From positions 1 to 41,587 of IMG/VR virus record IMGVR_UViG_2541047938_000008: DNA of 41,587 bases; one strand, 5' to 3'. Each line of letters starts with the position of its first letter. The stretch's first letter is position 1. This stretch comes from a virus. Its lineage: Duplodnaviria > Heunggongvirae > Uroviricota > Caudoviricetes. The notes below the pieces were generated by a model that did no database searches, had not been told where the DNA came from, and was given only the letters and a program-made list of their open reading frames with translations. Positions 7,500 through 8,203 of this stretch are shown here, in pieces. The position numbers were made by a program, and so were the translations under genes.

Positions 7500-7654
7500 T
7501 TACTATGCTCCAGGCGCAGCAATGCCGCACAAGATAAACTTGCGCAGCTTTGCTTTATGGTTCGGTTATAATTAGTTAAAAGTGCGGAGGTGTTATGGAC
7601 AGAGATTTATTGAACTTAGCGTTCCTGATTTTTGGAATTTGCGTTGGTGTCGCG

Positions 7655-8203
7655 TTATTCGCTTAACACCTCAGATTTAGCGCCCTGAGCAGCAGAGTTA
7701 ACAACACGCTCAGCTTGAGACATTGCTTTCTCGAAAGCAGTAGAGCCGCGCGGAGTGTTAGCCAGTCGCAGCATTGCGTTGCGTACCGGTTCGCTCTCAT
7801 ACATTCTCGCCAGCAATCCATACCCGCCGCCGACGCCAACTAGTGCAGGGTTAGTTACCGTTCCGATACCGAGAATAAATGGAATGGTCTGCTGACCTGT
7901 TGGCGTGGTTACCCCCGCCTGCCCTGCTCGCTTCGTGGATTCCAGGTAATTCTTCAGCCCCTTCAGATATGCAGCATCACGACCTTTAAACGCAATCCCT
8001 GTCTGGTTAGACATCATGTTAACCTGTCGCAGGAACTGGTCAGGTGACCCACCAGACTTCTCCATAGCCTTCCCGATAATGCCGTTACGCATCTGCGCGC
8101 GTCCGGTCTGACCAACTGAGCGGTACAGGTTTTGAACTTCCGACTTGTTCTTGCTAAACAGCATGTTGTTAACCACTTCTGGCGTCAGGTTGCGTATTTT
8201 CAT
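7655..8203 (-). CDS. Hypothetical protein in the slot between ejection genes and tailspike
   Basis: 182-aa ORF; no recognisable motif; no Shine-Dalgarno upstream; start abuts the IS end. Confidence 0.5.
   Translation of the reverse strand: MKIRNLTPEVVNNMLFSKNKSEVQNLYRSVGQTGRAQMRNGIIGKAMEKSGGSPDQFLRQVNMMSNQTGIAFKGRDAAYLKGLKNYLESTKRAGQAGVTTPTGQQTIPFILGIGTVTNPALVGVGGGYGLLARMYESEPVRNAMLRLANTPRGSTAFEKAMSQAERVVNSAAQGAKSEVLSE

Follow-up and report, generated by a model that had tools for sequence, protein, structure and literature searches.

We found that the gene-16-type gene of a P22-like prophage has been split by a recent, simple transposition of the insertion sequence (IS) ISEc12. The prophage is carried by IMG/VR record IMGVR_UViG_2541047938_000008 (positions 1 to 41,587; this whole stretch of 41,587 nucleotides is called the window below). 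A 182-amino-acid (182-aa) open reading frame (ORF) beside the tailspike gene is the orphaned 3' end of the split gene, a by-product with a chance ATG derived from the IS, and we consider this practically certain. A 23-codon micro-ORF that converges on the fragment is very likely a genuine protein-coding gene under purifying selection, with a ribosome-binding site conserved across L/ST64T/BTP1-type (23 aa) and Sf6-type (25 aa) phages. We propose, as somewhat better than an even bet, that its product is an inner-membrane peptide made in the lysogen, which would be an effector or co-effector of the exclusion published for the BTP1 transcript STnc6030 and would act on gene product 16 (gp16) in a SieA-like manner. 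The explanation as a whole, from the IS split through to the exclusion peptide, is no stronger than this weakest link, and we favor it modestly.

The 182-aa ATG ORF lies at 7655-8203 on the minus strand of the ORF list. A sequence-only reading of the window had described it as an unassigned ORF with no recognisable motif, placed in the slot where P22 carries sieA-mnt-arc-ant. Homology searching assigned it elsewhere. Its product matches PHROG 770, 'DNA transfer protein' (P22 gene 16 type), at positions 471-666 of 668 (E = 4e-72), and its C-terminal 175 residues are those of a virion ejection protein, a homologue with a structural role. A 592-aa ORF on the other side of the IS (10744-12522, minus) matches PHROG 770 positions 4-468 (E = 7e-149), and the two ORFs jointly span the whole profile. 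A Pfam scan of the 182-aa and 592-aa ORFs gave no match to either, which explains why no motif had been seen; PHROGs does recognize them. The native 5' fragment of the gene (10772-12522, minus) supplies 584 codons of the 592-aa ORF, which then reads through eight IS codons (AYYREGDR) to a stop at 10744. The native 3' fragment (7655-8190, minus) comprises the final 175 codons with their stop codon, and it includes one of the two target-duplication copies.

Removal in silico of 8191-10771 together with one GTCAGGT copy yielded a single 759-aa ORF without a stop, and the restored junction, where NVIMKGDLT runs directly into PEVVNNMLF, is identical to that of the uninterrupted BTP1 gp16 homologue. 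The gene-16 reading frame is thus not continuous as it stands, and the gene is a disrupted PHROG 770 member of the L/Sf6/BTP1 sequence type of P22 gp16, differing from that type by the ISEc12 interruption. An uninterrupted gene-16 homologue was present in all relatives compared; among them we found none with a free-standing 182-aa ORF and no IS, and the restored junction was not out of frame. The ATG of the 182-aa ORF (8201-8203) sits 11-13 nt inside the IS, so that the first 13 bases of the ORF are IS DNA. The IS contributes codons 1-4 (MKIR), and the duplicated target most of codons 5-7 (NLT). As the sequence-only reading had reported, no Shine-Dalgarno (SD) sequence precedes this ATG (upstream sequence GTGATCTCCTTTC).

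Over its residues 165-759, the restored protein shares 88% identity with BTP1 gp16; the figure for Sf6 gp16, over the ~595 residues in common, is 78%. The restored protein differs from both in an extra module of ~95 aa near the N-terminus (residues ~58-152; window 12067-12351, minus; sequence ending ...GKHLGMFDNPDDATAYAESLH), which is absent from BTP1 and Sf6 gp16 and gave no Pfam hit at E < 0.05. IME10-type gp16 also has additional N-terminal sequence, which by its appearance resembles a putative lytic-transglycosylase domain. A sequence search of the PDB with the C-terminal 175 aa of gp16 returned no solved relative.

ISEc12 (IS21 family, 2581 bp) occupies 8191-10771 on the plus strand. It has TG...CA ends with imperfect terminal inverted repeats (TGCGTATT... 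at 8191 and ...AATACGCA at 10771) and is flanked on both sides by the 7-bp target-site duplication GTCAGGT (left copy 8184-8190, right copy 10772-10778). It encodes the DDE transposase istA (513-aa ORF, 8384-9925, plus; Pfam rve and Mu-transpos_C_2) and the AAA+ helper istB (249-aa ORF, 9937-10686, plus; Pfam IstB_IS21, E = 2e-67). The segment 8191-10771 shows 100% identity, from base 1 to base 2581, to many plasmid copies annotated 'IS21-like element ISEc12 family', and this end-to-end identity confirms the boundaries and indicates a recent insertion. The copy shares istA/istB, ends and the 7-bp duplication with other ISEc12 copies; here the left end happens to give an in-frame ATG to the downstream fragment. 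P22 gp16 is packaged in the virion and needed for DNA delivery, and P22 particles without it fail to deliver DNA (PMC10883804). For this reason, the prophage is very probably unable to produce infectious particles after the loss of intact gp16.

The micro-ORF (MDRDLLNLAFLIFGICVGVALFA; 7595-7666, plus) has 23 codons from its ATG, followed by TAA. It converges with the 182-aa ORF and overlaps its 3' end by 12 nt (7655-7666), and a strong SD sequence, GGAGG, stands at 7586-7590 (plus), 4 nt before the ATG. These features, like the coordinates of both ORFs, agree with what the sequence-only reading had picked out, but the 182-aa ORF belongs to gene 16 itself and does not fill the slot it had been given. 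Only 155 bp (7500-7654) actually separate gene 16 from gene 9. This spacer corresponds in place to sieA/immI of P22 and contains the micro-ORF alone; the ORF list has no minus-strand ORF of at least 20 aa within it. The predicted peptide begins with a polar N-terminus (MDRD) and continues as a 19-residue hydrophobic stretch with a mean Kyte-Doolittle hydropathy of 2.55 (residues 5-23).

Homologues of this peptide are widespread at the same place. A 23-aa homologue was found in 90 of the 96 sources scanned, namely the window, 80 viral-contig loci, 5 phage records and 4 bacterial genomes; the bacterial genomes that combine it with this gp16 type are Citrobacter, Pseudescherichia, Atlantibacter and Kluyvera. 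The class comprises more than 30 distinct peptides, always 23 aa long. All of them have N7 and G14, and with G (occasionally A) at position 18 they show a GxxxG-type motif (G14xxxG18). Loci with Sf6-type gp16 carry a version that is always 25 aa long (76 of 79 usable loci), which in Sf6 itself reads MQRDLLNIAFYIVGFCTFLVFAKLF (L098:3047-3124) and is unannotated. With both classes pooled, homologues are present in ~166 of 175 related loci. Searches by tblastn and blastn placed the micro-ORF at the gene-16 3' end in 36 phage records, including ST64T, ST104, L, SPN9CC, g341c, MG40, BTP1 and Klebsiella phage phiKp_30. Escherichia phage HF4s also keeps it (MERNLLNFAFLIFGICVGVALFT), with nucleotide differences that are mostly synonymous.

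The pattern of variation is that of a coding sequence. Across 52 distinct nucleotide versions of the 23-aa class the ATG is invariant and the SD conserved, and an SD-like purine run occurs in 48 of 49 distinct upstream variants. Entropy by codon position, calculated over these 52 versions for codons 2-19 only, which overlap no other gene, was 0.49/0.24/1.27 (permutation p ~1e-5), and no codon periodicity was seen in the upstream spacer. The pooled ratio of non-synonymous to synonymous variation (pN/pS) was 0.23 in the reading frame of the micro-ORF. Four other frames gave 1.1-2.4, and the antisense frame with the same wobble positions gave 0.38. Because length, ATG and ribosome-binding site are kept in related loci and the variation is codon-periodic, this conservation exceeds what chance would give.

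The micro-ORF is not annotated in any of the phage records inspected. Its peptides had no hit at E <= 1 against PHROG, Pfam and NCBIfam models, an exact look-up of ten peptide variants in a collection of 15 billion proteins found 0 present, and a full-text literature search for the peptide sequences, or for small-protein reports on BTP1 or P22-like phages, gave nothing relevant. This absence from databases is expected for ORFs of less than about 30 codons. We regard the micro-ORF as a well-supported small gene that had not been recognised before.

The BTP1 version of the micro-ORF lies within a transcript of known phenotype. STnc6030 was described in Salmonella prophage BTP1 as an 'antisense ncRNA' (non-coding RNA) of 786 nt, seen at ~500 nt on Northern blots and abundant in lysogens (Owen et al. 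2020, PMC7067206). It is constitutive, with a mean of ~90 transcripts per million in BTP1 lysogens; its over-expression from a plasmid was without reported toxicity and gave total exclusion of BTP1 and none of P22, and BTP1 induction was unaffected by it, which the authors call unexplained (PMC7067206). A 2025 review still presents it as an antisense RNA. STnc6030 was classed as non-coding for want of an ORF > 60 aa (PMC7067206), yet it contains a 23-codon ORF with a strong SD and the marks of purifying selection. This BTP1 micro-ORF (MERDLLNFVFLIFGLVVGKLLFA; D23580 404253-404321), whose peptide is identical to that of the window at 16 of 23 positions, lies inside STnc6030 and inside the cloned exclusion fragment (L005:2095-2880 by primers). 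The fragment has two ATG ORFs of at least 15 aa, and the micro-ORF is the only one with an SD.

The published escape mutations point to gp16. Four escape single-nucleotide polymorphisms (SNPs) fall within 36 bp (D23580 404041-404078) and are all non-synonymous in gp16; the supplementary coordinates are 402294-404261 for STMMW_03891 and 403942-404727 for STnc6030 (PMC7067206). We mapped the escape region to gp16 residues 583-596 (ILGIGTVTNPALVG), and all four SNPs change residues there. The codons for the identical segment in the window lie in the gene-16 fragment at 7835-7876 (minus), and the segment falls within the most hydrophobic 19-residue stretch of the restored protein (residues 684-702, ~7829-7885).

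By BTP1 alignment and cloning primers, the stretch of the window equivalent in position to STnc6030 is 7189-7974 (plus). [quoted passage not shown] The two regions are homologous, with 74% nucleotide identity over 201 nt (spacer and gene-16 end) and the same gene arrangement; they differ in the poorly conserved start-site sequence, and lysogen abundance and exclusion were shown for BTP1 only. The STnc6030 start in BTP1 (L005:2095) aligns to ~7189 of the window, where we found no promoter-like site; the arrangement TTGAAT-17-TTCAAT, plausible by eye at the BTP1 start, is not conserved in the window. A promoter scan gave no canonical promoters or terminators around the micro-ORF in the window or in BTP1. 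A candidate -10 element, a perfect TATAAT, is present at 7567-7572 (plus), 22 nt upstream of the micro-ORF ATG, in a conserved module TTGCGCAGCnTTGC...TATAAT. It is kept in 33 of 49 upstream variants, and we found no acceptable -35 element for it.

In phages ST64T and L (L002/L096:2129-2428, minus), an oppositely oriented orf62 lies between the micro-ORF and mnt. The mnt promoter therefore cannot serve the micro-ORF in these phages, and a start of its own upstream is needed; L and ST64T have an AT-rich GATAATATATAG ~40 nt before the micro-ORF ATG. We also considered RNA structure. In the window only, GAGGTGTT around the SD (7586-7594) is perfectly complementary to AACACCTC past the micro-ORF stop (7667-7675). 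A long-range hairpin sequestering the SD in the style of type I toxins was rejected, as pairing across 59 variants was no better than in shuffled sequences (mean duplex -9.8 vs -10.5 kcal/mol).

P22 offers a parallel. Its sieA gene directly follows gene 16, converges with that gene and has a promoter of its own; its position and orientation are those of the micro-ORF. P22 has no micro-ORF homologue, and no phage record has both SieA (41 records) and the micro-ORF (36 records). Escape from SieA requires gp16 P546S and G532W plus gp20 changes (Leavitt et al., PMC10883804). When gp16 C-termini are aligned, anchored by the conserved blocks TxTGQ and GYGLxxRxYES, P22 G532 corresponds to BTP1 G576, seven residues before the escape segment, and P22 P546 corresponds approximately to V589, inside it. 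BTP1 exclusion escape thus falls in a C-terminal gp16 segment that also carries a SieA-escape substitution. Further likenesses are that both proteins are hydrophobic and that both exclusions spare the induction of the resident prophage itself.

The two proteins are nevertheless different in kind. SieA has 164 residues and several helices, and its family consists of multi-pass inner-membrane proteins of ~160-200 aa; the micro-peptide, with 23 residues and one hydrophobic helix, falls outside both this size and this topology and cannot contain the FxRYPxEAxxFNK motif. Escape from SieA also needs gp20 changes, and SieA excludes P22-like phages broadly, whereas STnc6030 does not exclude P22. With P22 SieA as query, tblastn returned no match below E = 1 in the window, a comparison that covered SieA type A and not types B or C. 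The micro-peptide is, by this comparison, not a SieA family member, although it may work like SieA. The suggestion of the sequence-only reading that the slot holds an exclusion gene does not apply to the 182-aa ORF, which is the gp16 end, and becomes plausible for the 23-aa ORF, with its sieA-like position and orientation inside the BTP1 exclusion transcript. The genome paper on phage L describes L as having no known exclusion genes and does not mention the micro-ORF.

Putting these observations together, we hypothesize that the micro-ORF product is a single-pass inner-membrane peptide made in the lysogen, translated from an STnc6030-equivalent transcript and/or from a message started at its own TATAAT promoter, and that it is an effector or co-effector of the published exclusion phenotype. 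It might act as a minimal SieA whose target in the inner membrane is a hydrophobic segment rich in glycine near the C-terminus of incoming gp16 (ILGIGTVTNPALVG...), bound perhaps via N7 and G14xxxG18. The DNA conduit of superinfecting phages with that gp16 type would then fail, and prophage induction would be untouched. Induction would be unaffected because it involves no entry step, and escape would have to change the gp16 protein; the proposal would also explain why BTP1 escape and a P22 SieA-escape substitution meet in the same short gp16 segment. In its most specific form, the 23/25-aa peptide and not the RNA would be the effector of STnc6030-type exclusion, a single transmembrane helix that disables the gp16 conduit by intramembrane packing and a SieA analogue that arose independently in the same slot; we give this form roughly equal chances of being right or wrong.

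Several points weigh against this proposal. No canonical sigma-70 promoter was found in the window, which also conserves poorly the sequence around the start of STnc6030 in BTP1. Within the transcript, the escape SNPs map to the 3' part, 175-212 nt beyond the micro-ORF, and their region is predicted within a hairpin, with a possible kissing loop. That four of four SNPs are non-synonymous is not statistically unusual (an estimated ~0.3 by chance). The mutual exclusivity of SieA and the micro-ORF could simply mirror linkage to different gp16 types, and the P22-BTP1 gp16 alignment has ~25% identity, though it is anchored by conserved blocks on both sides. Residues 476-609 of P22 gp16 are reportedly not needed for association with membranes in vitro (as quoted in PMC10883804), and this makes membrane insertion of the segment less plausible. 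Finally, we looked for co-variation between peptide variants and the gp16 escape segment and saw none. That comparison is uninformative, because the same segment accompanies many peptide variants and linkage confounds it.

The strongest competing explanation is the antisense mechanism as published, in which exclusion is exerted purely by the RNA against the gene-16/tailspike message. The peptide would be translated and conserved but have another role, for example as a small membrane regulator of a host or phage protein. We consider this a serious though distinctly less probable explanation. It is the published model, with the escape SNPs in a 3' 'seed' region (PMC7067206), and it would accommodate the hairpin predicted around the escape region, the lack of visible co-variation between peptide and gp16 segment, and the failure of STnc6030 to exclude P22, which is unlike BTP1 there in nucleotides. 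However, an RNA directed against late mRNA should also harm the induced prophage, and induction is unchanged. One mismatch would have to be enough to undo the effect of ~320 nt of otherwise perfect complementarity, and the overlap with the P22 SieA-escape position would be accidental. STnc6030, moreover, gains nothing in fold stability over shuffled sequences (z = -0.55 over the full transcript and -1.25 over its 3' part), and an Rfam search of window 6900-8300 found no family.

Type I toxin peptides such as Ibs, ShoB, TisB, Ldr and Hok are ~19-50 aa long, form a single hydrophobic helix and are encoded opposite another transcript. In size and hydrophobicity the micro-peptide resembles the Ibs, ShoB and TisB types, and it is likewise placed antisense to another transcript, here the late mRNA. 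It could accordingly be a toxin-like or abortive-infection effector, restrained in the lysogen, that damages the membrane when triggered by incoming gp16 or de-repressed on infection, so that the cell dies and DNA entry itself is not blocked, and escape in a phage protein is typical of sensor-type defences. We judge this improbable. The micro-ORF differs from type I toxins in matching no NCBIfam, Pfam or PHROG model, in having no dedicated antitoxin RNA, and in its strong, unsequestered SD. The SD-sequestering 5'-3' pairing of the window is not conserved. Its carrier transcript is constitutively abundant in BTP1 lysogens, apparently without toxicity, and was over-expressed with none reported.

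Still less likely, in our view, is an untranslated micro-ORF, conserved for signals that the spacer carries as RNA or DNA, for example in the processing of late mRNA, in translation of the tailspike or as the binding site of a protein. High conservation extends to the spacer upstream of the ORF, and no gene caller or database has the peptide; both observations would fit. Non-coding constraint, however, does not produce variation at third positions only, and the upstream spacer has no such periodicity; the ATG is invariant, the position of the stop is fixed across ~80 distinct nucleotide versions, and the low pN/pS of 0.23 is confined to one frame. That the 182-aa ORF is an independent exclusion or anti-defence accessory gene in the immI slot, for which only its position beside the tailspike and the lack of an obvious motif on unaided reading spoke, is already refuted by its co-linearity with the last 175 residues of gp16-type proteins, its IS-derived ATG without SD and the uninterrupted gene in all relatives, and its likelihood is negligible.

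Other exclusion systems provide a broader frame. T4 Imm and Sp, HK97 gp15 and TP-J34 Ltp are phage or prophage envelope proteins that stop genome entry, and escape from them maps to the conduit-forming protein. They are several-fold larger than the micro-peptide and unrelated to it in sequence. We know of none among them that is encoded antisense within a late operon. The HK97 and TP-J34 exclusion proteins are also cited in PMC10883804.

The spacer itself has further features. Upstream of the micro-ORF, window 7520-7575 is more conserved (both strands) than the flanking coding DNA. It contains an imperfect hairpin, CCGCACAAG-ATAAA-CTTGCGCAG, whose pairing is better in the late mRNA (minus strand). 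It also has a TTGCG motif in repeated form (TTGCGCAGCnTTGCG) that accompanies the micro-ORF even where sequence farther upstream differs (e.g. loci L021, L023, L043 and L068). The motif or hairpin could be a regulator-binding site or a late-mRNA signal. In a Yersinia aleksiciae prophage, a different 42-aa ORF with one hydrophobic helix (MLEIASFVALAAIVYLIRQVGILSNRVSELEKITDRLNDKIN; L092:3544-3672, minus) occupies the same slot, convergent with gene 16, and small membrane ORFs may be a general feature of the post-gene-16 position. In many Sf6-type prophages (L115:1319-1840, minus, and ~38 other viral loci), the 25-aa micro-ORF is immediately preceded, on its own strand, by a 173-aa ORF with a lipoprotein-like signal (MKKSLLIIPLLLVGC...). 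The pair may form a cassette of two genes that is expressed in the lysogen and converges with gene 16.

The window as a whole is a P22-like prophage that adjoins tRNA-Arg(CCT) and yfdC, and its flank (window 1-1200) is 99.9% identical to E. coli. Its genes include an integrase, gtrA, gtrB and a GtrC-like gene, the tailspike, the gp20 and gp7 ejection genes, P22-type coat, portal and terminase, and an S24/HTH repressor. The ejection genes and the tailspike gene are all on the minus strand, in the order gp7 (PF25688), gp20 (PF16928), split gene 16 and tailspike (PF09008); the split gene comes third and last among the ejection-protein genes of the late operon, with the gp20 homologue on one side and the tailspike gene on the other. 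The tailspike gene, of P22 gene 9 type (5568-7499, minus; Pfam Head_binding, E = 1e-58), is the downstream late-operon neighbour. The same gene 16-tailspike arrangement is found in phages HF4s, g341c and BTP1. Searches by tblastn with P22 SieA, Orf59a, Mnt, Arc and Ant found no sieA, orf59a, mnt, arc or ant homologue in the window, which by this sequence comparison is without an immI region. The gene-16 end (window 7480-8230) was found at >80.3% identity in 0 of 5,426 complete E. coli genomes; judged by this search, the prophage type is rare in sequenced E. coli, or its host is a close relative such as Shigella. Two tRNA genes, tRNA-Thr(TGT) and tRNA-Asn(GTT), lie within the prophage at 27356-27511 (minus).

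In conclusion, the 182-aa ORF is ordinary, a spurious ORF made by routine disruption of a gene by an IS. The split marks the prophage as probably defective, and its host-serving genes (gtrABC and the micro-ORF) are intact. A coding gene that was missed in phages as heavily annotated as L, ST64T, Sf6 and BTP1 would indicate that annotation is blind below ~30 codons. The peptide reading offers a simple answer to the STnc6030 paradox, in which infecting BTP1 is blocked, the induced prophage is not, and all escape SNPs alter gp16. If it is true, the micro-peptide would be the smallest known phage exclusion protein, and the published 'antisense ncRNA' would be a small-protein mRNA or a dual-function RNA. 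The 23-residue helix would then be a minimal tool for studying how gp16 crosses the inner membrane, and a compact, portable phage-resistance determinant.

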